A DNA stretch of 64,000 nt, taken from positions 50,770 through 114,769 of the forward strand of contig JAJZOD010000010.1 in the NCBI GenBank assembly GCA_021852055.1. The letters are read 5' to 3'. Below are positions 9,066-39,565 of this stretch, in pieces (positions within the stretch are counted from its first letter, which is position 1; each line of letters opens with the position of its first letter). Origin of the DNA: Candidatus Micrarchaeota archaeon (GTDB lineage: Archaea; Micrarchaeota; Micrarchaeia; Micrarchaeales; CABMGC01). The translations under genes and the position numbers were made by a program. The notes under the pieces are model-generated. The model did no database searches and was not told the origin of the DNA. It saw only the letters and a list, made by a program, of their open reading frames with translations.

Positions 9066-9578
9066 CTACCTGCTCTTTTTTGGTTTGACTATGCAGCTTT
9101 GCTTTGACAGCTTATTCAGGTAGTATACAATAATGGCGATGTTCACTGCTGCCATTGCAAAGAATACCTGGACAGAAAACGAGCTTATTAAAGAATTAAG
9201 CGAGAACAGCGTTGTTGAACTTATGCCTAAAGCGGCAAAGCCCATAAGAAGGGGTTCAGCGCACCCACAACCGCCGAGAACGCCGCCAAGTATGAGTGTA
9301 ACTGCACTTACAGAACTCGCAGTAAACTTTGCCTTATTCCTGCGCGTATTCCTTATTGAGTATACTGATATTGTAAGAAGCACAGATGCAGTAATTATTA
9401 CTGCATACTCAAGATATGCCGGAACATTTACCAGAAATATGCCATAATCCTGGTATCTTATCAAAAACCCGAAAAACAGGTAATATGCAACTGCTGTAGC
9501 CACATTAAGCGCAGCGTAACTAGGCCTGTAGATCCTTCTAACAGAGTTGTATATCCTTTTAGCAACTTCACTCATCAT
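9066..9578 (-). CDS. Integral membrane protein with an intramembrane GGCGCAEP motif
   Basis: 170 aa, 4-5 TM. The start overlaps the stop of the upstream gene by 4 bp (ATGA coupling at 9575-9578). Confidence 0.55.
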   Translation of the reverse strand: MMSEVAKRIYNSVRRIYRPSYAALNVATAVAYYLFFGFLIRYQDYGIFLVNVPAYLEYAVIITASVLLTISVYSIRNTRRNKAKFTASSVSAVTLILGGVLGGCGCAEPLLMGFAALGISSTTLFSLNSLISSFSVQVFFAMAAVNIAIIVYYLNKLSKQSCIVKPKKSR

Positions 9579-10825
9579 TTCCCACCTTTTGATATCTTTT
9601 GTACAAAATCGTCCTCCTCTACATTTGACGTTTCTACATCTGCGCTGCCATCCTTATTGATTTCCGTACTGCCCTGATGCATCGCATCCTTTGGTGCCTC
9701 CTCCTGCTCCCTTATCCTTTTCATCTCAGCCCTCGTTGCAAGCGCAGACCTGATGTACAGCAATGCTATTATTATGACAATTGCAATTATTATATATTCT
9801 GTACTACCTCCGAGGCTTATGTCAGGAAGCGACAGCACGAACCCTGATGAAGCGGCAAAGGTGTTTGTTTTTGAACAGCTTGCTATTATGCCGGTTGTAT
9901 TCTTTAACAATCCGCTCCCATACGCAGAATACTGCTGTGCGCCTGAAAGTGTCACAGGTTTTTGCATCTCTTTAGATTCATTTATCCTTGGTGCCAGATA
10001 GTCCGCTGCGCTTGTCTTGTTTGACGATAAGCAGCCTGATAGCACTTTGGTACTGTTCCTAAACTCAGATGATGCTATGCCTATGTCCTCTGAACCGTTT
10101 ACAACGGCACGGACAGTGGAGTTTGCGTTATCTGCAAAAGCATAAAATGTTGCGTTGCTGTCCTTCAGCTCAGTGGATGCAAAGCTTATGTTGAGAGTTG
10201 CGCCAGCTGTATTGTTACCAATAAGCTGCGACCTAGCTTCTGCAAGCGTATGGTTTACGAATTCGTTGCTCTGCTGTACAGTTGTATTGCACACGCCATA
10301 CGAGCCGCAAACATAGGCGTACTCATTGCCTCTTAATATGTAGCCGGAGTATGCCGATTCATAACTCTCCAATGCCGCCTGTACAGTTGCATTAAGGTAA
10401 TGATTTATAGTAATGCTTATGTTTTCAGACTGCGCAGCCTGCGGGTAGCCGGATGGCACAAGCCTCAGCGTTATGCTCTTTTGCGATATTCCATTCCCTG
10501 AGAACACCGAAAATGCTGGTATTGTTATAAAGCACGTCGTGCTCTTTCCATAACCTACTACGCACTCCCCGCCGCTTATGCCGGATAGCGCTGTGATATT
10601 GTTGTTTCCTGATTCCCACACCGTATAATTATCAAAAAGCTGCGTGCTTGGAGCTGATACTATTATGCCTGCTGTTATGGTGCTGCCATCCTGGCAGCTT
10701 ATATACGTGGTATTTGTCTGTGTGCACCCTGGAGCGCCATTGCCTACATAAATTGGCGCAACATATACATATGCGTAGGCAGCGCACACTAGCGCTGCTA
10801 TTGCAAATATAAGCGTAACCCTCAT
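9575..10825 (-). CDS. Secreted glycoprotein with C-terminal TM anchor and acidic cytoplasmic tail
   Basis: N-terminal signal MRVTLIFAIAALVCAAYA, many NxS/T sequons, a C-terminal TM (YIIIAIVIIIALLYI) and an E/D-rich tail. Confidence 0.65.
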   Translation of the reverse strand: MRVTLIFAIAALVCAAYAYVYVAPIYVGNGAPGCTQTNTTYISCQDGSTITAGIIVSAPSTQLFDNYTVWESGNNNITALSGISGGECVVGYGKSTTCFITIPAFSVFSGNGISQKSITLRLVPSGYPQAAQSENISITINHYLNATVQAALESYESAYSGYILRGNEYAYVCGSYGVCNTTVQQSNEFVNHTLAEARSQLIGNNTAGATLNISFASTELKDSNATFYAFADNANSTVRAVVNGSEDIGIASSEFRNSTKVLSGCLSSNKTSAADYLAPRINESKEMQKPVTLSGAQQYSAYGSGLLKNTTGIIASCSKTNTFAASSGFVLSLPDISLGGSTEYIIIAIVIIIALLYIRSALATRAEMKRIREQEEAPKDAMHQGSTEINKDGSADVETSNVEEDDFVQKISKGGK

Positions 10826-29630: not shown

Positions 29631-30029
29631 TTAACCTTGTTTGAGCACCATAAGCGTATTTGTATCAGCCACATCGTTAACATGCCGTATCTTCTCTATT
29701 GCATTGTTAATCTTTATCATTTCATGCGAGCTCACAAAACACACTATATCAAACTGACCTGAAACCTCGTAAACACCGCTGATTCCTAAATCGCGAATTG
29801 CATTTGCCACTTTTGTGGTTGGCGCACCTGTCGAAGTTGCGATTAAAACAACAGCCTTCAGCTCTTTTTCATCTTCTATTGTGAACTTAAGTTCACCGTT
29901 TTTTGTGAGTTTTTTAACCCTTGCGCGTATTGTGCCTTCACTCACGCCTAATTTTTTGGCTATTTCCACAAACGGCGCTCTGCTATTTTCTTTAAGCATG
30001 TGTACTATTTTCTCATCAGTGCTATCCAT
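29631..30029 (-). CDS. Lrp/AsnC-family transcriptional regulator
   Basis: DEKIVHMLKENSRAPFVEIAKKLGVSEGTIRARVKKL HTH plus a C-terminal RAM domain. It overlaps the lysA-like stop by 8 bp, consistent with co-transcription. Confidence 0.85.
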   Translation of the reverse strand: MDSTDEKIVHMLKENSRAPFVEIAKKLGVSEGTIRARVKKLTKNGELKFTIEDEKELKAVVLIATSTGAPTTKVANAIRDLGISGVYEVSGQFDIVCFVSSHEMIKINNAIEKIRHVNDVADTNTLMVLKQG

Positions 30030-31410
30030 TTTTACCCCTGTTGAACTTGGCATGTTTCTTATCTTTAGCTAGCCCGGCAAATCTTGATCCATTAAAATCA
30101 AGGGTTGCAAAGTAGTCCTGTACTGTTTCTGCACGGCGTATCATTTTGATTGCGTCATTGTCTTTCATAAGAAGCTCTGCGCTGCGAAGCTTGCCATTGT
30201 AGTTAAATCCCATTGCATGACCATGAGCTCCTGCATTGTGTATTGCCAGTACATCACCAACATTTATCTTTGGCAGATATCTGTCTTTGGCGAATTTGTC
30301 ATTGTTCTCACACAGCGAGCCTACTACATCATACATGTGGTCTCTCGGTCGGCCCTCCTTGCCTAAAACAGTAATATGGTGGTATGCGCCGTACATTCCA
30401 GGACGCATAAGGTTTGCCATGTTTGCGTCAACACCTATGTACTCCTTATAAGTGTGCTTTTCATGTATTGCTGTAGTTATAAGATAGCCAAACGGTCCTG
30501 TCATCATTCTGCCATTTTCCATGAATATCTTTATATGACCCATTCCGTTACCTTGCAGCATTTTTTTGAATTCTTCGTGTATACCTGCAGACATGGCATC
30601 CAAATCAACGGCTTTCTGTTCCGGTCTGTAAGGTATTCCTATGCCCCCGCCAAGATTTACAAATTCGAATTTTATGTTCAGCTTTTCAGATATCTCTAAT
30701 ACAAGATCGAACAACATTCTTGCTGTTTCTATAAAAGCCCTGTAATCCAGTTCATTTGATGCAATCATAGTGTGAAGTCCAAAGCGTTTTACACCTTTGT
30801 CACGCATTATCCTGTAACCTTCGAATAGTTGTGTTTTTGTAAGGCCGTACTTAGCATCCTCAGGACTTCCTATCACGTTTCCATCAAGTGTTTTGCGCAG
30901 CTTGCCTGGATTGTACCTGAAGCATATTATTTCAGGTATTCCAGCATGCTTTTCAAGGAACTGGATATGGGTTATGTCATCGAGGTTTATTATGGCACCC
31001 AGCTGCATGGCCTTCTTAAACTCTTCTGGTGGGGTATCGTTTGAGGTAAACATGATCCTGTTGCCAGGAATGCCGAGCGCTTCGGCAATGAGCAGCTCAG
31101 GCAACGAGCTGCAGTCAACGCCATTGCCTTCTTCGACTAATATGCGCACTATGCTGGGATTTGGGCATGCCTTTACTGCAAAATGATTCCGGAAGTTTGC
31201 CCAGGAGAATGCAGCATTTAATCTTCTTGCATTTTGGCGTATGCCATCTTCATCATAAATATGGAAGGGTGTTGGATATTCTGCTATTATACTGGCGATT
31301 TGCTTCTTTGTAAAAGGCAAATCAGAGTTATGTCTTCTTAAATTTTTTACAATTTCTTGATTTATTGGGGTTTTTTCCTGTGTTTTTTGTTTCTGTTTCT
31401 TCACTTCCAC
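30022..31410 (-). CDS. lysA: PLP-dependent group IV decarboxylase, most likely diaminopimelate decarboxylase
   Basis: TPFHIYDE...FAVKACPNP (PLP-Lys), GGGIGIPY, and CENNDKF near the C-terminus. The lysine-pathway neighbourhood supports the call. GTG start preceded by AGGTG. Confidence 0.7.
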   Translation of the reverse strand: MEVKKQKQKTQEKTPINQEIVKNLRRHNSDLPFTKKQIASIIAEYPTPFHIYDEDGIRQNARRLNAAFSWANFRNHFAVKACPNPSIVRILVEEGNGVDCSSLPELLIAEALGIPGNRIMFTSNDTPPEEFKKAMQLGAIINLDDITHIQFLEKHAGIPEIICFRYNPGKLRKTLDGNVIGSPEDAKYGLTKTQLFEGYRIMRDKGVKRFGLHTMIASNELDYRAFIETARMLFDLVLEISEKLNIKFEFVNLGGGIGIPYRPEQKAVDLDAMSAGIHEEFKKMLQGNGMGHIKIFMENGRMMTGPFGYLITTAIHEKHTYKEYIGVDANMANLMRPGMYGAYHHITVLGKEGRPRDHMYDVVGSLCENNDKFAKDRYLPKINVGDVLAIHNAGAHGHAMGFNYNGKLRSAELLMKDNDAIKMIRRAETVQDYFATLDFNGSRFAGLAKDKKHAKFNRGKNG

Positions 31411-31418
31411 ACCTAAAA

Positions 31419-31646
31419 TTATACATTCTTAAGTTGTGGCGCAAAAACACATATATCTGTTTTTAAATTATCTATTTCTCCACGCAGATCACGATTATTT
31501 ATAGCAAGAATTAAAATTATATCTTTTAGTCGTTTTTTAGACATCATGTTCAAACGGGATACAGTATCCACTGGAAACAAGTCTGTCCTAGCAATATCTT
31601 TCAAATCTTCTATTATTTTTGTTTCTGGTTTTTTTTGTATTTTCAT
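31419..31646 (-). CDS. Hypothetical 75-aa protein upstream of lysA
   Basis: ORF only. It ends 8 bp before the lysA start. Charged and helical. Confidence 0.3.
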   Translation of the reverse strand: MKIQKKPETKIIEDLKDIARTDLFPVDTVSRLNMMSKKRLKDIILILAINNRDLRGEIDNLKTDICVFAPQLKNV

Positions 31647-31904
31647 TTTTGCGCCAATTTTATATTTATTTTTATATATAAATATAATTATATATAAATA
31701 TATTCGTTCAAATTTTGGGATATTTTACTAAAAAAACCCAATTAATGTAAATACTATACTGGATTTTTTTCAATTACAAATTAGATATAAAGTTTATACG
31801 AAAACTCGCTGTTTCTGCATTTAGAAATGTTATGCGTCGGATCAACAAGAATCGGGATTTCGGCTATTCGAGGAGAAATGTCTAGATATTCGATAGACAC
31901 GATT

Positions 31905-31934
31905 TTCGTAATATTAATACGAAAAATATAAATA
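31905..31934 (+). promoter_or_regulatory. TTCGTA-N7-TACGAA palindrome fused to an ATATAAATA TATA box (dapL promoter)
   Basis: Read directly: TTCGTAATATTAATACGAAAAATATAAATA. A GGAGGAG SD lies at 31963-31969 before ATG 31978. An extra TACGAAAA half-site lies at 31798-31805. Confidence 0.55.
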
Positions 31935-31977: not shown

Positions 31978-33201
31978 ATGGCCAGAATAAATAATAATTA
32001 CGACAAGCTGAGTACAGGGTATCTATTTCCCGAGGTGGCGAGAAGAACCAAGGCATTTTCCGAGTCAAATCCCGGAGTTGATATATATAAGCTTGGCATC
32101 GGCAACACAACACTTCCTTTGACACCGAGTGTTATAGAAGGGTTAAGAAAAGGAGTAGACAAACTGGCAGACATAAAGACTTACACAGGTTATGGCGATG
32201 AGCAGGGAGACTCACGATTAAGAAAGATGATAGCTGGGCTGTACTTAAGAAAGTATAACGTAAAAATAGAGGAGAATGAGATATTTGTGAGCGACGGAGC
32301 GAAACCTGACTCTGCAAACATCCAATCAATATTTGGCAGTGACGGGAAGATTGCTGTGCAGGATCCTGCCTATCCTGTATATGTTGACAGCAACGTCATA
32401 GCAGGCAGAACCGGACCTGCAGAAGGAAGCACATACAAAGGCATAGTATACATGCCTTGCAATGAACAGAACGGCTTCTTCCCATCAGTTCCTAGAGAGA
32501 AGGTTGATCTGGTGTATATATGCAGCCCTAACAATCCGACCGGTGCTGTAGCGACAAAGGAACAGCTAAGCGATTTTGTAGACTATGCAAGAAATAATAG
32601 GGCCGTCATAATATTTGATGCGGCTTATTGGTCATACATATCCGATCCGGATCTGCCGCGCAGTATTTATGAAGTGGAAGGTGCCAGAGAGTGTGCAATA
32701 GAAATAAACAGCTTCTCTAAAAGCAGTGGATTCACAGGTGTCAGGTTGGGCTGGTCAGTAGTCCCTAAAACTCTTGTAGCTGAGGATGCATCACCCGGAA
32801 AGATAAACTCCTTATGGAACAGAAGGCAGACGACCATGTTCAACGGTGCATCAAACATAGCACAGGAAGGAGGCATAGCGGCGCTTTCCGATAAGGGCCT
32901 TGAGGAGAACCAGGCGATAATAGATTATTATATGGAGAATGCTAGAATAATCAGGGAGTGTCTGATTGAGAAAGGCTTTAAGGTATTCGGCGGCAAAAAT
33001 GCCCCTTATTTATGGGTAAAAACAAAAGACGGCATGAAGTCCTGGGACTTTTTCGACAAGATGTTAAGGGAAGCCCACGTTGTAGTAACACCTGGTTCAG
33101 GCTTCGGCCCATCAGGAGAAGGCTACTTCAGGGTAAGTGCATTTGGCGTGCGTGACAATGTAGTAAAGGCAGTGCAAAGCATACGCGACAACCTAAAATA
33201 A
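31978..33201 (+). CDS. dapL: LL-diaminopimelate aminotransferase (DapL)
   Basis: INNNYDKLSTGYLFPEVARR N-terminus and NSFSKSSGFTGVRLGW (PLP-Lys) are DapL hallmarks. The ORF begins at 31954, but ATG 31978 has the SD. Confidence 0.85.
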   Translation: MARINNNYDKLSTGYLFPEVARRTKAFSESNPGVDIYKLGIGNTTLPLTPSVIEGLRKGVDKLADIKTYTGYGDEQGDSRLRKMIAGLYLRKYNVKIEENEIFVSDGAKPDSANIQSIFGSDGKIAVQDPAYPVYVDSNVIAGRTGPAEGSTYKGIVYMPCNEQNGFFPSVPREKVDLVYICSPNNPTGAVATKEQLSDFVDYARNNRAVIIFDAAYWSYISDPDLPRSIYEVEGARECAIEINSFSKSSGFTGVRLGWSVVPKTLVAEDASPGKINSLWNRRQTTMFNGASNIAQEGGIAALSDKGLEENQAIIDYYMENARIIRECLIEKGFKVFGGKNAPYLWVKTKDGMKSWDFFDKMLREAHVVVTPGSGFGPSGEGYFRVSAFGVRDNVVKAVQSIRDNLK

Positions 33202-33648: not shown

Positions 33649-34698
33649 TCAGATATAATTGTTAACCTTCAAAAGCTCAGCGTTGAGTATTGTTCCTCCA
33701 GCAGCCCCGCGTATTAAATTATGACCAAGAACAGTAAATTTATAATCTAATATATTACATTTTCGTAGTCTACCTATAATAGACGCCATGCCATTCTCTG
33801 CATCAACATCAAGTTTCGGTTGAGGTCTGTTATCATTATGTAAATAAATTATAGGATTTTTAGGAGCTGATGGAAGGCATAGGTTTTTTATTGGATTGAA
33901 ATTATTAAATGCTTTTATTATGCCATCTTTATCAGTCGTGTTAGAAAGTTTTACACTGATGCTCTCCATATGCCCGTATTTCACTGCTACTCTGTTGCAT
34001 TGTGCACTTATATCAATACTTTCTGGAATTATTTTTTTATTTGATAAAGAACCAAAAATCTTGAGTGGCTCTGTTTCTATTTTTTCTTCCTCACCTTTTA
34101 TGAAGGGTAGTACATTATCGATAGCGTCAAGTGATGGTACGCCAGGATATCCGGCTCCGCTCAAAGCTTGCATAGTAGTAACCATTACCTTCTCGATACC
34201 AAAGGAATCATAAAGTGGTTTTAGTGCAAGACAAAGTTGAATAGTAGAACAATTTGGATTTGCTACTATGAAGCCTGTCCATCCTCTCCTCTCCTTTTGT
34301 ATTTTTATCATACCTAAATGGTTAGGATTTACTTCTGGTATTAGTAATGGAACATCTTCCTCCATACGATGATTCATAGCATTAGTTGAAACAGGATAGC
34401 CGAACTTTGCAAACTTCTCTTCAATTTCAAAGGCTACACTTGAGTCCAAAGCGGATAGTATAATATCGCAATCAAGTTTTGGATTACAGTCTTTTACAAC
34501 AAGATCTCTTACCGTTTCGGGAATCTCATTTCCAATACTCCATCTAGCGTCCATTACTTCGGCATATGTCTTTCCGGATGTTCGCTCAGATGCTGCTATT
34601 TCACTAATCTCAAACCAAGGGTGATTTTCAAGAAGATGAATTATCATTTGTCCTACAACACCGGTCGCACCCAAAACACCAACTTTTATTTTTTTCAT
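33649..34698 (-). CDS. asd: Aspartate-semialdehyde dehydrogenase
   Basis: VGVLGATGVVGQ NAD motif and active-site ANPNCSTI. 349 aa. Confidence 0.9.
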   Translation of the reverse strand: MKKIKVGVLGATGVVGQMIIHLLENHPWFEISEIAASERTSGKTYAEVMDARWSIGNEIPETVRDLVVKDCNPKLDCDIILSALDSSVAFEIEEKFAKFGYPVSTNAMNHRMEEDVPLLIPEVNPNHLGMIKIQKERRGWTGFIVANPNCSTIQLCLALKPLYDSFGIEKVMVTTMQALSGAGYPGVPSLDAIDNVLPFIKGEEEKIETEPLKIFGSLSNKKIIPESIDISAQCNRVAVKYGHMESISVKLSNTTDKDGIIKAFNNFNPIKNLCLPSAPKNPIIYLHNDNRPQPKLDVDAENGMASIIGRLRKCNILDYKFTVLGHNLIRGAAGGTILNAELLKVNNYI

Positions 34699-34700
34699 TT

Positions 34701-36020
34701 TTAAACACCAAAAAATGCGGTATGTAATTTTTTAACTGCTTCTCCTAATTGTTCTTCTTTAATTACAAAACTTTGATTTATCTCTGACATGCTTGAAGAT
34801 ATCATCTCTACATCTATATCAGTTAATGCTGAAAAAATTATGCCCATCACATTAGGAACATGAATCATGTCGTTTCCTACAACTGAGATTATTGTCCTGT
34901 TTTCTTTAATATCAATCTTTCCTATTTCCTTAAGATCAGATTCCGCTTTATCTATTCTTTGATTTTTCAAATTGTCTACAGTAACAGAAACATTTATTTC
35001 AGAAGTTGATACCATATCCACAGAAATGTTGTTTATATCAAAAATCTCAAAAATCCTTCTTAAGAAGCCTTTAGCTTCAAGCATTCTGGGTGTGGATATA
35101 TTTATTACTTTTATATTTTTTTTATAAGTTATAGAACTGATTCTTGACTTTTTTATTATATTGTTCGAAACTACAGTTCCTAGATTTTGGGGATTAAAGG
35201 TATTTAATATCCTTACAGGTATATTTTTTTCTATTGCAGGAAATATTGTTTTAGGATGTAAGATTTTTGCGCCCAATGAGGCTATTTCCGATGCTTCCTC
35301 AAATGATACAGAATCTAATTTTTTAGGATTTTTTACTAATTTAGGATCGGCAGTCATAATTCCATCAACATCTGTCCATATTTGAACTTCTTCAGCATTT
35401 ATTGCAGCACCTATTATTGTGGCTGTGTAATCACTACCACCTCTCCCTAAGGTTGTTATTTTACCTTTAGTATCTTTAGCTATAAATCCTGTAATAACTA
35501 ATATACTGTTTATATTTGATATGCGCTCTTTTATTTCAGGATATTTATCTTTTGAAACTTCAAATTTTGATTCTTTATTTATTATAATGCCTATGTCAAA
35601 AGCATCTTTTGCTTCTGAATCGATACCTAAACTTTTTATGTAACTGGCAACTATTCTGGCAGAAAACCTTTCACCGAAAGACACAAAATTGTCTGCTATT
35701 CCTTGATTCATTTCTTTTAATAAGGATACACCATAGGTTAGATCAGAAAGAAGTTTTACTTCTTTATCGATTATATCTTTATTTAGTTTTAAGAGCGTTA
35801 TAATTTCATAATGCTTATAAATTATTTCATTTAATAAGGCTTTCTGCTTTGTTCCTATTACTGCTTCTTTAGATAATTCTATCAATAAATCTGTCACACC
35901 CCCAATTGCGGAAACTACTATCACTGGTTTACGATTTATATTTTTTTTTATTATCTCTGCAACATTTTTTATTCTTTCTGCATTTGCTAGGGAACTGCCT
36001 CCAAACTTCATTACTAACAT
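34701..36020 (-). CDS. lysC: Aspartate kinase
   Basis: VMKFGGSSL, GRGGSDYTA, and C-terminal ACT repeats. Confidence 0.9.
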   Translation of the reverse strand: MLVMKFGGSSLANAERIKNVAEIIKKNINRKPVIVVSAIGGVTDLLIELSKEAVIGTKQKALLNEIIYKHYEIITLLKLNKDIIDKEVKLLSDLTYGVSLLKEMNQGIADNFVSFGERFSARIVASYIKSLGIDSEAKDAFDIGIIINKESKFEVSKDKYPEIKERISNINSILVITGFIAKDTKGKITTLGRGGSDYTATIIGAAINAEEVQIWTDVDGIMTADPKLVKNPKKLDSVSFEEASEIASLGAKILHPKTIFPAIEKNIPVRILNTFNPQNLGTVVSNNIIKKSRISSITYKKNIKVINISTPRMLEAKGFLRRIFEIFDINNISVDMVSTSEINVSVTVDNLKNQRIDKAESDLKEIGKIDIKENRTIISVVGNDMIHVPNVMGIIFSALTDIDVEMISSSMSEINQSFVIKEEQLGEAVKKLHTAFFGV

Positions 36021-36021
36021 T

Positions 36022-36774
36022 TTATCCCTTTATTATTGAAGAGATTACTTCTTCGAAACTGTAAAATCCTTTTTTATCATTTATCCATTTAGCTGCAAGA
36101 AGTGCGCCCTCAGCAAATCCTGCCCTGTTCCTTGCAATATGTCTTAATTCTATATTATCGGAGATACCATCAAATCCTAAAACATGCGTTCCGGGAAAAA
36201 ATCCTGCTCTAATGCTGCCAACATGTATTTCGTCGGGTTCTATCTTCCTGCCGTCTATTCTGTCAAAAACTAACTTCTTTTTTCTTTTAATGTTAGAGAG
36301 GAGTATATTTCCCAAATTTTTGGCTGTCCCACCTGGAGAATCTGTTTTTTGATTATGATGTATTTCGTATATGTAAGGATCATACATTGGAAATTTATCT
36401 ATAATAAAAGATGCGCTTCTTGCAATACTAAAAAATATATTCATCCCTATGGAAAAATTAGGACTGTATATCATTCCTGAATTATTAGCTTTGATTATTT
36501 CTCTGGCAATTTTAATATTATCATACCAACCTGTTGTTCCTACAACTAATGCTTTTTTATAACTTGCAACTTTGGTTATAGTTTCAATAATATTATCTGG
36601 AGAACTAAAATCTATTATTACATCTGCATCTTCTACTGCTTCTTTTGATAATTCTTTATGGGTTGCATTTTTTCCTTTACGATCTATTATTGAGGATATT
36701 TCAAATTTATTTGCTAAAGCCATACTCTCTACTTCATGGCCCATCTTTCCATAGCCTATCAATGTAATTTTCAT
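36022..36774 (-). CDS. dapB: 4-hydroxy-tetrahydrodipicolinate reductase
   Basis: IGYGKMG N-terminus and EIHHNQKTDSPGGTA signature. Confidence 0.9.
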   Translation of the reverse strand: MKITLIGYGKMGHEVESMALANKFEISSIIDRKGKNATHKELSKEAVEDADVIIDFSSPDNIIETITKVASYKKALVVGTTGWYDNIKIAREIIKANNSGMIYSPNFSIGMNIFFSIARSASFIIDKFPMYDPYIYEIHHNQKTDSPGGTAKNLGNILLSNIKRKKKLVFDRIDGRKIEPDEIHVGSIRAGFFPGTHVLGFDGISDNIELRHIARNRAGFAEGALLAAKWINDKKGFYSFEEVISSIIKG

Positions 36775-36786
36775 ACGCTTACCTTT

Positions 36787-37683
36787 CTAAATTATTTTTA
36801 GCTCGTTATAAAGCATCAGTGTTTTTTTAAGTTGTTCTCTGTTTGTTTGGTTCATTTCGCATAAAGGAAGTCTAAAATTACCAGAGGGCATCCCGACAAT
36901 TGACATTGCAGTTTTTATAGGTATCGGATTTGTTTCTATAAATAAATCTTTAAATAAAGGCATTAACTCAAAATGAATTTTAGAAGCTTCATTAATTTTA
37001 CCTGAATTAGCAAGCTTTACCATTTTTAAAACACGATCTGGTAGTATATTACTAGCTACAGATATTACACCCTTACCGCCAACACTCATTAATGGCAAGG
37101 TCATACTGTCATCGCCACTTAAAACTATAAAGTCTTCAGGTAGTTTTTCTAAAACCTCTATCATCTGGTTTATATTGCCTGAGGCTTCTTTGACACCAAT
37201 AATGTTATCTAACTTACTTATCTTAATTAGAGTTTCTGTAGTTATATTTGTACCTGTTCTTCCAGGTATATTGTAAATAAGTATTGGTATATTTACTGAT
37301 TCAGTTATACTTTTAAAGTGTCTATAAATCCCTTCTTGTGTTGGTTTGTTATAGTAAGGAGTAACTATTAATACTGCATCAACTCCTAGTTTCTCTGCTT
37401 TTTTAGTTTTTTCAATTGTTTTCTGCGTTGAATTAGTGCCGGTACCTACAATAACAGGAACACATCCGTTTGTTTCCTCTAACACAGTAGTTATTATTTT
37501 TTGGAATTCATCATCATTAATTGTAGGAGATTCACCTGTCGTGCCAAGTGGCAATAACCCAGAAACTTCTTTTTGAATTTGAAATTTTACATTTGATCGG
37601 AGCCCGTTGTAATCAACTTGAAGATTATTGTCAAAGGGGGTTATCATAGCAGTTATACATCCGCTTAGTTTTTTGTTAATCAT
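36787..37683 (-). CDS. dapA: 4-hydroxy-tetrahydrodipicolinate synthase
   Basis: AMITPF, GTTGESPT, YNKP, and GVKEASGN (catalytic Lys). Confidence 0.9.
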   Translation of the reverse strand: MINKKLSGCITAMITPFDNNLQVDYNGLRSNVKFQIQKEVSGLLPLGTTGESPTINDDEFQKIITTVLEETNGCVPVIVGTGTNSTQKTIEKTKKAEKLGVDAVLIVTPYYNKPTQEGIYRHFKSITESVNIPILIYNIPGRTGTNITTETLIKISKLDNIIGVKEASGNINQMIEVLEKLPEDFIVLSGDDSMTLPLMSVGGKGVISVASNILPDRVLKMVKLANSGKINEASKIHFELMPLFKDLFIETNPIPIKTAMSIVGMPSGNFRLPLCEMNQTNREQLKKTLMLYNELKII

Positions 37684-37720: not shown

Positions 37721-37750
37721 TATTTATATATTTCGTAGAAACATTACGAA
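37721..37750 (-). promoter_or_regulatory. TTCGTA-N7-TACGAA palindrome fused to an ATATATAAATA TATA box (dapA operon promoter)
   Basis: The minus strand reads TTCGTAATGTTTCTACGAAATATATAAATA, 37 nt upstream of the dapA ATG. An extra half-site lies at 37752-37757. Confidence 0.55.
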
Positions 37751-37935
37751 GTTCGTAATAATGACAGAAATAGTTTAGATTAATGAGTATTCTTGAATCT
37801 ACAAATCAAATATTATATATTTGGGCGCCTACTTTGTATCAATAAGGGTTGAAAGCCAGCGGCTACACTTTCTTGACCACCACGCTTAAATACCAGAGCA
37901 TTTTAAATTAATTTAGATGATGTGATGCCCCTCCA

Positions 37936-38280
37936 ATGGCTACCAGAAATAAATACATGCAGGCAGGAGCCTGCGATGGCAGCCGTAGCTGCGTAGGCCT
38001 GTTCAGGGCCCTGCTTCTCAAGGAGTTAAACAAGAACAAGATAATTATACTTAGGCGAGCCTCCGGCACATATAAAAGCAGCGTTACATCTGCATTGCGC
38101 GAGTTGAGCAATACTTATGGAATACCGCTCTCTACACTTAAGCAGTCGGCTTGTTCTCTGAAAAACCTTGGACTTATAGAGTATGGCACTGCAGAAGAAC
38201 CAAAGGAGCTTACAATAACAAAAACAGGCATCAATGCGCTTAAGCTCATGGCAACTGAGCTTGATGAAACTGATAGTTGA
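37936..38280 (+). CDS. Putative winged-HTH DNA-binding protein
   Basis: 114 aa. IPLSTLKQSACSLKNLGLIEY resembles a recognition helix plus wing. It ends 4 bp before the trpB2 ATG. Confidence 0.4.
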   Translation: MATRNKYMQAGACDGSRSCVGLFRALLLKELNKNKIIILRRASGTYKSSVTSALRELSNTYGIPLSTLKQSACSLKNLGLIEYGTAEEPKELTITKTGINALKLMATELDETDS

Positions 38281-38284
38281 TTTT

Positions 38285-39565
38285 ATGGATAATAGAATAA
38301 ACGGGTTTGTTGAAGTACCAAAAAACTTCTACAATGTGCAAAGCATTCTTGATATCCCTCCTCCAAAGGGAGAGAACATCAAATTGCTTCCGAAGATATT
38401 CCCAAAGGAGATGCTTCGTGAAGAGATGAGCAAGGACAAGTACGTGCCTATTCCAGAGGAGGTTAGGGAGGAGATGATGCGCTATAGGCCAACGCCTCTA
38501 GTCGAAGCCATAAGGCTGAAAAAGCATCTGCACCTGCCAGAAGATGTCAGGATATTGTACAAGCGTGAGGATGTTTCGCCAACAGGCAGCCACAAACTCA
38601 ACACTGCCTTGATGCAGGCATACATAAACAGCAAAGAGGGCATAGAAAGGCTGACTACTGAAACAGGGGCAGGACAGTGGGGCTCGGCTTTATCGTATGC
38701 ATGCAACAAATTTGAAGTGGACTGCACAGTGTACATGGTAAGAGCATCCTTTGGACAGAAACCATATAGGAAGGTGCTAATGAAGCTATTTGGTGCAGAT
38801 GTGGTTTCATCACCAAGCAGCAGAACGGAATATGGAAGGGAGATTATCAAGAAAGACCCCCAGACTTCAGGCTCGCTCGGAATAGCCATATCCGAAGCCA
38901 TAGAGGATGCATTGGGTAGTGATAATGTGCGCTACTCATTGGGATCCGTGCTGAACAGCGTACTGATGCATCAAACTGTCATTGGACAGGAACTCAAGGA
39001 GCAGTTGAAGCGCATAGAAGTTGTGCCTGATGCACTTGTTGGCTGTATTGGAGGCGGTTCGAACTTCGCGGGCTTTATGCTTCCTTTCATAGAGGAGAAA
39101 ATCAGTCAGAATGACGTGCTTGACATAGTTGCAGTTGAGCCCAAGGCCTGCCCATCCATAACCAGAGGCAAATATGAGTATGATTATGGCGATTCTGCAG
39201 AAATGACACCTATGCTGAAGATGTACACATTGGGCCATGACTTCGTGCCTCCGCCAATCCATGCCGGCGGTCTGAGGTATCATGGCAAGGCACCTATAGT
39301 GAGCCTGCTTGCGAACAGAGGTATTATGCGTACAGTGGCGTATGAACAAAAAAGTATATTTGATGCAGGTGTGACCTTCGCCAAAACAGAAGGCATAGTT
39401 CCTGCACCGGAATCGTCGCATGCTATAAAGGCAGCCATTGATATGGCAATAGAAGCGATGAGGCGACGAGAAAAGAAGACTATAGTCATGAACCTGAGCG
39501 GCCATGGTCTTTTTGACCTGAAAGGCTATGAGGATTACATGGATGGGAGTTTTAACCGTGCATAG
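38285..39565 (+). CDS. trpB2: Tryptophan synthase beta-like protein, TrpB2 class
   Basis: REDVSPTGSHKLNTA (PLP-Lys), TETGAGQWGSA and GCIGGGSNFAG, plus the N-terminal extension typical of TrpB2. ATG 38285 is preferred over the ORF start 38234. Confidence 0.85.
   Translation: MDNRINGFVEVPKNFYNVQSILDIPPPKGENIKLLPKIFPKEMLREEMSKDKYVPIPEEVREEMMRYRPTPLVEAIRLKKHLHLPEDVRILYKREDVSPTGSHKLNTALMQAYINSKEGIERLTTETGAGQWGSALSYACNKFEVDCTVYMVRASFGQKPYRKVLMKLFGADVVSSPSSRTEYGREIIKKDPQTSGSLGIAISEAIEDALGSDNVRYSLGSVLNSVLMHQTVIGQELKEQLKRIEVVPDALVGCIGGGSNFAGFMLPFIEEKISQNDVLDIVAVEPKACPSITRGKYEYDYGDSAEMTPMLKMYTLGHDFVPPPIHAGGLRYHGKAPIVSLLANRGIMRTVAYEQKSIFDAGVTFAKTEGIVPAPESSHAIKAAIDMAIEAMRRREKKTIVMNLSGHGLFDLKGYEDYMDGSFNRA

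Follow-up and report, generated by a model that had tools for sequence, protein, structure and literature searches.

A predicted LysM-type operator on the DAP/DapL lysine genes of a Micrarchaeota archaeon

The promoters of dapL and of the dapA-dapB-lysC-asd operon in a Candidatus Micrarchaeota genome share a short module, abutting the TATA box, that is probably a lysine-responsive operator of the LysM type, controlling the DAP/DapL rather than the LysW pathway. Operators for an Lrp-family regulator, with the LysM mode of action preferred, are the best explanation as a whole, to which we would give a probability of about 0.55 on the sequence comparisons set out below. The operator is a familiar kind of switch, placed here on a different lysine pathway. 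Its prediction supplies a concrete regulator-operator pair for uncultured, genome-reduced DPANN archaea, whose gene regulation is almost unknown, and would mean that a 1-Mb genome retains amino-acid-responsive control of a complete DAP-lysine pathway. In the literature, our coverage of which is incomplete, we came across no account of LysM-type regulons that act on DAP genes or occur in DPANN archaea.

Two promoter modules and the anatomy of the operator

The genes concerned lie close together in the window, that is, the whole stretch of 64,000 nucleotides that was analysed:

29631..30029, minus strand: Lrp/AsnC regulator, LysM-like, 132 aa; the proposed binder of the boxes, overlapping the lysA stop codon by 8 nt
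30022-31410, minus strand: lysA (Pfam)
31978..33201, plus strand: dapL, LL-diaminopimelate aminotransferase (TIGR03542, 570.9 bits against a cut-off of 364.7)
33649..37683, minus strand: target operon dapA-dapB-lysC-asd (Pfam, ORFs)
33649-34698, minus strand: asd (Asd; Pfam)
34701-36020, minus strand: lysC, aspartate kinase with ACT domains (Pfam)
36022-36774, minus strand: dapB (DapB; Pfam)
36787-37683, minus strand: dapA (DHDPS; Pfam)

The gene calls on which the original prediction was built (dapA, dapL, lysA and the Lrp/AsnC regulator) hold against Pfam and, for DapL, against TIGR03542. The dapL start codon at 31978 is preceded by a GGAGGAG Shine-Dalgarno sequence. An ORF of 75 aa without family match (31419-31646, minus strand) lies directly upstream of lysA and is apparently the first gene of the lysA-lrp unit; this ORF and lysA (30022..31646, minus strand) form a single unit with the Lrp gene. 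Divergent from dapA, on the plus strand at 37936-38280, lies a gene for a 114-aa protein resembling the TK0271 activator family (69 bits against a cut-off of 130), followed at 38234-39565 (plus strand) by a TrpB-like PLP enzyme, TrpB2 (628 bits); the two are possibly a separate regulator-target pair.

Upstream of the dapA operon the minus strand (37750-37721) reads TTCGTAATGTTTCTACGAAATATATAAATA, and upstream of dapL the plus strand (31905-31934) reads TTCGTAATATTAATACGAAAAATATAAATA. The two stretches, which had been described as a shared operator-plus-TATA module with some 26-27 of 30 positions identical, agree at 26 of 30 (87%), with mismatches at positions 9, 12, 13 and 21 and the letters as originally quoted. 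Both consist of a TTCGTA-N7-TACGAA dyad followed at once by the TATA box, the end of which lies 38 nt from the ATG of dapA (37683) and 44 nt from that of dapL (31978), close to the 37-43 nt that had been estimated. The dyad is rare: the window contains two matches, against 0.00 expected from 100 shuffles, and these same two sites are the only ones in the entire assembly of 1,018,812 bp (1.02 Mb in 14 contigs, 90% complete). The proposed genome scan has thus been run, and instead of a random frequency without promoter bias it returns two matches, both in promoters. Copies with one mismatch are absent from the whole assembly, and the 34 copies with two mismatches equal the background for other spacer lengths, so that the exact N7 dyad has no wider regulon in this genome. 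The core promoters of both modules follow the genome's own consensus, an A-rich BRE at -5 to -3 and TATAAATA, which is its commonest promoter 8-mer class. Among 156 promoter-like sites of the genome, ACGAA precedes the TATA box only in those of dapL and the dapA operon, and on this count TACGAA was rejected as a generic BRE.

Comparison with related genomes indicates that the conserved recognition unit is not the N7 dyad itself; it is a 13-bp palindrome, TACGA-N3-TCGTA, and the N7 dyad is the junction between this primary box and an auxiliary half-box lying on the BRE. The second TACGA(A) of the dyad is this half-box, 20 bp downstream of the primary box at the edge of BRE and TATA box. The dapA module accordingly divides into TACGA-act-TCGTA-atgtttc-TACGA-a-atatataaata and the dapL module into cACGA-ttt-TCGTA-atattaa-TACGA-aaa-atataaata, with the following elements:

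37745..37757, minus strand: primary LysM-type box of the dapA promoter, TACGA-ACT-TCGTA; kept before dapA in four other genomes (G100, G024, G026, G132)
37732..37737, minus strand: auxiliary half-box TACGAA at the BRE position of the dapA promoter; 7 nt past the primary box, centres 20 bp apart
37721..37731, minus strand: TATA box ATATATAAATA of the dapA operon
31898..31910, plus strand: primary LysM-type box of the dapL promoter, cACGA-TTT-TCGTA; the orthologous dapL promoters of G067, G094, G024 and G058 have TACGA-N3-TCGTA
31918..31923, plus strand: auxiliary half-box TACGAA at the BRE position of the dapL promoter
31925..31934, plus strand: TATA box AATATAAATA of dapL

The original prediction had also placed extra half-sites beside both copies, and these fared differently. 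The one at 37752-37757 forms the left arm of the dapA primary box and so belongs to the conserved core, but nothing supports the one at 31798-31805, a lone TACGAA about 100 bp from the dapL module. The hexamer occurs about 400 times per Mb, both strands counted, and we treat this copy as chance because it is single and has no partner. A position weight matrix for the 13-mer finds other matches in the genome, none of them with a TATA box at the right distance; the combination of box and correctly placed TATA box is confined in this genome to the promoters of dapL and the dapA operon.

We examined the layout further in a set of 26 sites from the comparison. Because these were picked with at most one mismatch in the 13-mer, the conservation of the 13-mer within the set, including C in 26/26 and G in 25-26/26 at positions -4 and -3 of the TACGA-N3-TCGTA arms, is in part a product of the selection, which took no account of auxiliary half-box, spacing or gene context. 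The auxiliary half-box is well conserved (T22 A20 C23 G16 A24 A21 of 26), 20 sites have 13-15 nt between 13-mer and TATA box, and the centres of primary and auxiliary box lie 20 bp (N7) or 21 bp (N8) apart. The auxiliary TACGA is degenerate in several lineages (TGCAA, CACAA, GAAGA, GTCAC, with a spacer of 7 or 8 nt), and the five promoters of this genus all have the full TACGAA. A variant layout was seen in two genomes (L128 of G030, positions 2501-2560, and L159 of G028, positions 20-70): two full 13-bp boxes, TACGA-aat-TCGTA-N7-aACGA-aat-TCGTA, lie 20 bp apart with the TATA box 6 nt later, and the whole operator is about 12 bp further upstream than usual.

Distribution of the module in related genomes

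The primary core, auxiliary half-box and TATA box recur together in at least 25 related DPANN genomes, either just past the stop codon of an Lrp orthologue or before dapA, dapL, lysA or dapF. This conservation with the Lrp orthologue and DAP genes supports the proposal of an Lrp-type operator abutting the BRE and TATA box. A scan for the exact N7 dyad in 100 other genomes of the same family gave ten matches, one each in ten genomes. In six of these genomes the dyad fills the gap between the stop codon of the Lrp orthologue and the TATA box of a lysine-linked gene, adjoining both; the gene is dapA (G100), lysA (G048) or one for a protein of about 360 aa beside an M20 deacylase (G047, G027, G019, G085). 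The other four matches fall in coding sequence, and their genomes have no Lrp. Across genera, the DNA that follows the Lrp stop codon shows the recurring module TACGA-wwt-TCGTA-N7(8)-TACGA-a-TATTTAAATA. Further boxes in Lrp-positive genomes stand before dapL (G024, G058, G067, G094), dapA (G024, G026), dapF (G085; TIGR00652) and the ~360-aa protein, which has no family name (G093, G076).

An Lrp orthologue is present in 23 of the 101 family genomes, and at least one 13-mer is found in 19 of these 23 as against 16 of the 78 Lrp-negative genomes (Fisher p = 1e-7), where the matches lie in coding sequence and have no TATA box. This association, together with the match to the published LysM box described below, strengthens the case for the lysA-linked Lrp as the cognate regulator, the role for which it had been put forward. 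In a phylum-wide sample of 401 genomes, the composite 25-mer pattern TACGA-N3-TCGTA-N7-TACGA has 11 matches, compared with 2 for a control pattern, and all 11 adjoin Lrp or dap genes. Three lie outside the family (G132, with the order lrp-dapB-[box]-dapA, G295 and G403). At the locus of G295, a genome from another family of the same order, a gene for a 279-aa protein starts about 57 nt past the LysM-type box (L154, minus strand); this protein resembles neither the DAP enzymes nor the ~360-aa protein. A pair of more distant MAGs (L014, L002) have a box-like dyad plus TATA box between lrp and dapB in the order lrp-dapB-dapA-dapL-lysA. A control palindrome, AAGCAT-N7-ATGCTT, proved unexpectedly frequent in the family; it lies in heterogeneous coding contexts, and we attribute it to composition and not to a motif.

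The closest relatives of DapL are also DPANN MAGs, the best being a Micrarchaeota MAG with 78% identity and an identical cluster layout, others being labelled Woesearchaeota, Pacearchaeota or Diapherotrites, and several bearing evidently wrong bacterial labels. Most of these closest DapL relatives, taken from GenBank-derived contigs, are distant or mislabelled MAGs that lack the exact dyad. One of them (L001) has the gene cluster of the window, yet neither an Lrp within 10 kb nor a box.

These comparisons bear on the reading that the module is no protein operator and reflects a recent promoter duplication, a generic BRE/TATA consensus, or an RNA hairpin or terminator. The near-identity of the two copies and the ability of the dyad to form a stem of 6-8 bp are what such an origin would produce, but orthologous promoters differ in their spacers and retain the half-sites, the spacing and the TATA box, which we took as grounds to reject duplication, and the element lies upstream of the TATA box. 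As an RNA hairpin or terminator the module was likewise rejected, since its folds are of low stability (-5.7 and -8.5 kcal/mol) and not significant (z = -0.95 and -1.75). The comparative data largely refute all of these readings, and we regard them as very improbable.

The dapA promoters of genomes without the Lrp are also informative. We found dapA in 10 of 101 family genomes; where the Lrp is present dapA has the box in front, while in the Lrp-negative G012, G039 and G098 its promoter carries a different palindrome, TGTTATTGCAGTAACA, in the same place. At these loci (L157, L158 and L160, respectively) TGTTATTGCA(G/A)TAACA immediately precedes the TATA box, some 60-90 nt ahead of dapA. On this evidence the type of operator follows the regulator, and the pattern looks like replacement of regulator and operator together at one and the same promoter position. 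No dapA was detected at E <= 1e-40 in G067, G094 and G055 (L130, L131, L140), which belong to the same genus and have dapL-lysA-lrp. As dapA is known from only 10 of 101 genomes and the LysM-like Lrp from 23, many relatives may retain no more than the final steps of the pathway, or use another route.

In the sister species dapL, lysA and lrp form a single unit headed by the box, which lies before dapL, and we infer that a rearrangement separated the regulator from its box in the present genome. The lysA-lrp promoter near 31700 contains gAACGAA and a TATA box only, with no primary box, and we therefore make no claim of Lrp autoregulation here.

The regulator and its known counterparts

The predicted regulator has the make-up of the Lrp/AsnC family, taken as an AsnC-type HTH plus a RAM/AsnC ligand domain in about 130-160 aa. 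Its N-terminal HTH matches PF13404 (HTH_AsnC, E = 2.5e-15) and its C-terminal ligand domain PF01037 (AsnC_trans_reg, E = 1.1e-7), and it aligns over its full length with the FL11 and LrpA structures. A protein homology search has the 132-aa form on record; searched for named LysM relatives, it returned unnamed DPANN proteins only. The best NCBIfam model is LysM (NF040947), matched over its full length (1-135/136) with 126.1 bits (E = 7.6e-37), which falls short of the equivalog cut-off of 180 bits; the next-best family follows 75 bits behind, at 51 bits. Orthologues score 122-153 bits on the LysM model. Since 126 bits lies below 180 and FL11 itself reaches 119 on the same model, the protein is best assigned by sequence to the LysM/FL11 group and is not a proven LysM equivalog. 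As for LysM, its gene is embedded in a lysine-biosynthesis cluster, where it overlaps the lysA stop codon, and its orthologues sit in dapL-lysA-lrp-dapA or lrp-dapB-dapA arrangements.

The closest known counterpart in operator architecture is LysM of Sulfolobus solfataricus and S. acidocaldarius, which binds the boxes GTACGATTAGCGTAC, GTTCGTATGTCGAAC and GTTCTAAAATCGTAC, with C at -4 and G at -3 the most discriminating positions (PMC3597687). The regulators of both systems are encoded within the lysine-biosynthesis cluster (PMC3597687), and the boxes share the core T-W-C-G-W-N3-W-C-G-W-A, the CG at -4/-3 being the CG of TACGA. Against the cognate LysM box, GTWCGW-N3-WCGWAC, the DPANN sites have the C(-4) and G(-3) but lack the outer G/C preference at +/-7; no preference for G(-7)/C(+7) was seen among the 26 sites. 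In the Sulfolobus lysW operator the main box and the lysM stop codon overlap, and 11 bp separate the box from the BRE downstream (PMC3597687); in both systems the main box lies at or beside the regulator's stop codon and at a fixed short distance upstream of BRE and TATA box. An auxiliary degenerate box follows 20-21 bp downstream over the BRE and the TATA edge, again as in DPANN. The primary box here is 3-4 bp closer to the TATA box than that of LysM, and in this particular genome the regulator gene does not adjoin a box. The targets also differ: LysM acts on lysWXJK of the LysW-dependent AAA pathway, whereas the putative targets here are the DAP/DapL genes dapA, dapB, lysC, asd and dapL, joined in relatives by lysA and dapF. 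No lysW-type gene was seen beside any box.

Two other Lrp-type regulators offer partial parallels. FL11 (PH1519) of Pyrococcus (PDB 1ri7, 2e1c, 2znz), a lysine-sensing feast/famine regulator, has the solved structure closest to the Lrp (E = 6.5e-15), and a box that is likewise a 13-bp palindrome of the form abcde-WWW-EDCBA. FL11 boxes are of the type TGAAA-WWW-TTTCA, however, and thus differ in their half-site from the TACGA found here, and FL11 is a global repressor of about 200 transcription units, in contrast to the two promoter-placed boxes of this genome. FL11 regulates lysine genes among others (PMC2995911). The acidic residues aligned with its E98 and D122 are conserved here and are acidic in 22 of 22 orthologues, although the mapping to LysM positions 97/121 (PMC3597687) is not rigorous. 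Ptr2 of Methanocaldococcus jannaschii has two regularly spaced dyads just upstream of BRE and TATA box, in a position tightly constrained relative to the promoter, as here, and activates via recruitment of TBP (PMC2995911); it differs in that it is not known to sense an amino acid, has rb2 and fdxA as targets and recognises a different sequence.

Taken together, the comparisons make it very probable that the Lrp at 29631-30029 binds the boxes, and lysine is likely, though with somewhat less assurance, to be the effector at dapL and the dapA operon. A different factor could be envisaged, given that the genome encodes one other full-length Lrp paralogue (G000 C1:22052-22480) and that the TK0271-like gene shares the dapA intergenic region. 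We consider such a factor improbable, because the box accompanies the LysM-like gene, and not these two, from genus to genus, in many cases abutting that gene's stop codon; it is also absent from the dapA promoters of genomes without the LysM-like gene and matches the LysM box, while the second paralogue reaches only 40 bits on the LysM model.

Direction of regulation and possible significance

[quoted passage not shown] Binding of lysine in the C-terminal RAM domain would alter occupancy such that transcription of dapL and of dapA-dapB-lysC-asd falls when lysine is plentiful. In the preferred mode, that of Sulfolobus LysM, lysine-free Lrp on the primary box would aid recruitment of TBP and TFB, lysine would weaken binding, and the auxiliary half-box would tune activation or turn the promoter off. 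A dual switch might also operate, in which the apo form activates from the primary box and the lysine-bound oligomer spreads onto BRE and TATA box. Every version would have lysine lower expression.

On the sign of regulation, we give activation even odds or slightly better, and lysine-dependent repression a lower probability. In favour of activation are the fixed distance by which the primary box precedes BRE and TATA box in different lineages, the inability of a dimer placed there to occlude the promoter, and the LysM-like sequence of the box. The activating sites of Ptr2, LysM and Ss-LrpB are tightly confined to the stretch just upstream of the BRE and spaced by two or three helical turns (PMC2995911), and the box-to-TATA distance of most of our sites fits those of Ptr2 and LysM. 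On the other side, the core promoters are already consensus-like, and the auxiliary half-box, perfectly conserved in the genus, overlaps BRE and TATA box in a manner suited to occlusion. These same observations form the basis of an alternative in which the Lrp and its boxes are as proposed but lysine acts as co-repressor in the manner of FL11, so that a higher oligomer would fill both boxes, occlude BRE and TATA box and block TBP and TFB, the promoter firing on its own when lysine is absent. Besides the half-box that abuts the TATA box and is invariant in the genus, and core promoters that should need no activator, it has in its favour that the closest solved homologue is itself a lysine-dependent repressor. 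Against it stand the degeneracy of the auxiliary half-box in many relatives where the primary-box distance is fixed, the failure of a lone dimer to occlude, and a box that is LysM-like and not of FL11 type. We judge this co-repressor mode unlikely, though by no means negligible, and prefer LysM-like regulation.

If LysM-like regulation is correct, the experimentally defined LysM box extends far beyond Crenarchaeota and onto another biosynthetic route, an example of a regulator that keeps its DNA specificity, and probably its effector, while the target pathway is replaced. More tentatively, the LysM regulator and its box may be an old, portable pair, with the core kept from Sulfolobales to DPANN as LysW/AAA was swapped for the non-homologous DAP/DapL genes; as part of the same tentative picture, an operon of a GNAT-fold protein and a DapE/ArgE-type deacylase driven by the box could be an undescribed acyl branch of lysine/DAP metabolism. 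The box could be used to find lysine-linked genes in DPANN metagenomes, this GNAT-fold plus M20 operon being a case in point.

The operon was observed in six sister genomes, where the gene driven by a LysM-type box encodes a protein of 350-375 aa and adjoins one for an M20 deacylase of the DapE/ArgE type (L093:8082-9158 and 9169-10305, both plus strand; L094:395-1447, L095:6820-7944 and L097:6834-7940, all minus strand; L123). The window's own genome has no homologue of the protein, and searches of Pfam, NCBIfam and PDB gave no sequence match to it. Its AlphaFold model (pLDDT 70, pTM 0.71) places a GNAT acetyltransferase fold in the C-terminal ~180 residues (Foldseek E = 1e-8 to Naa60), and on the strength of this model the protein may carry out an unnamed acyl step linked to lysine/DAP metabolism.
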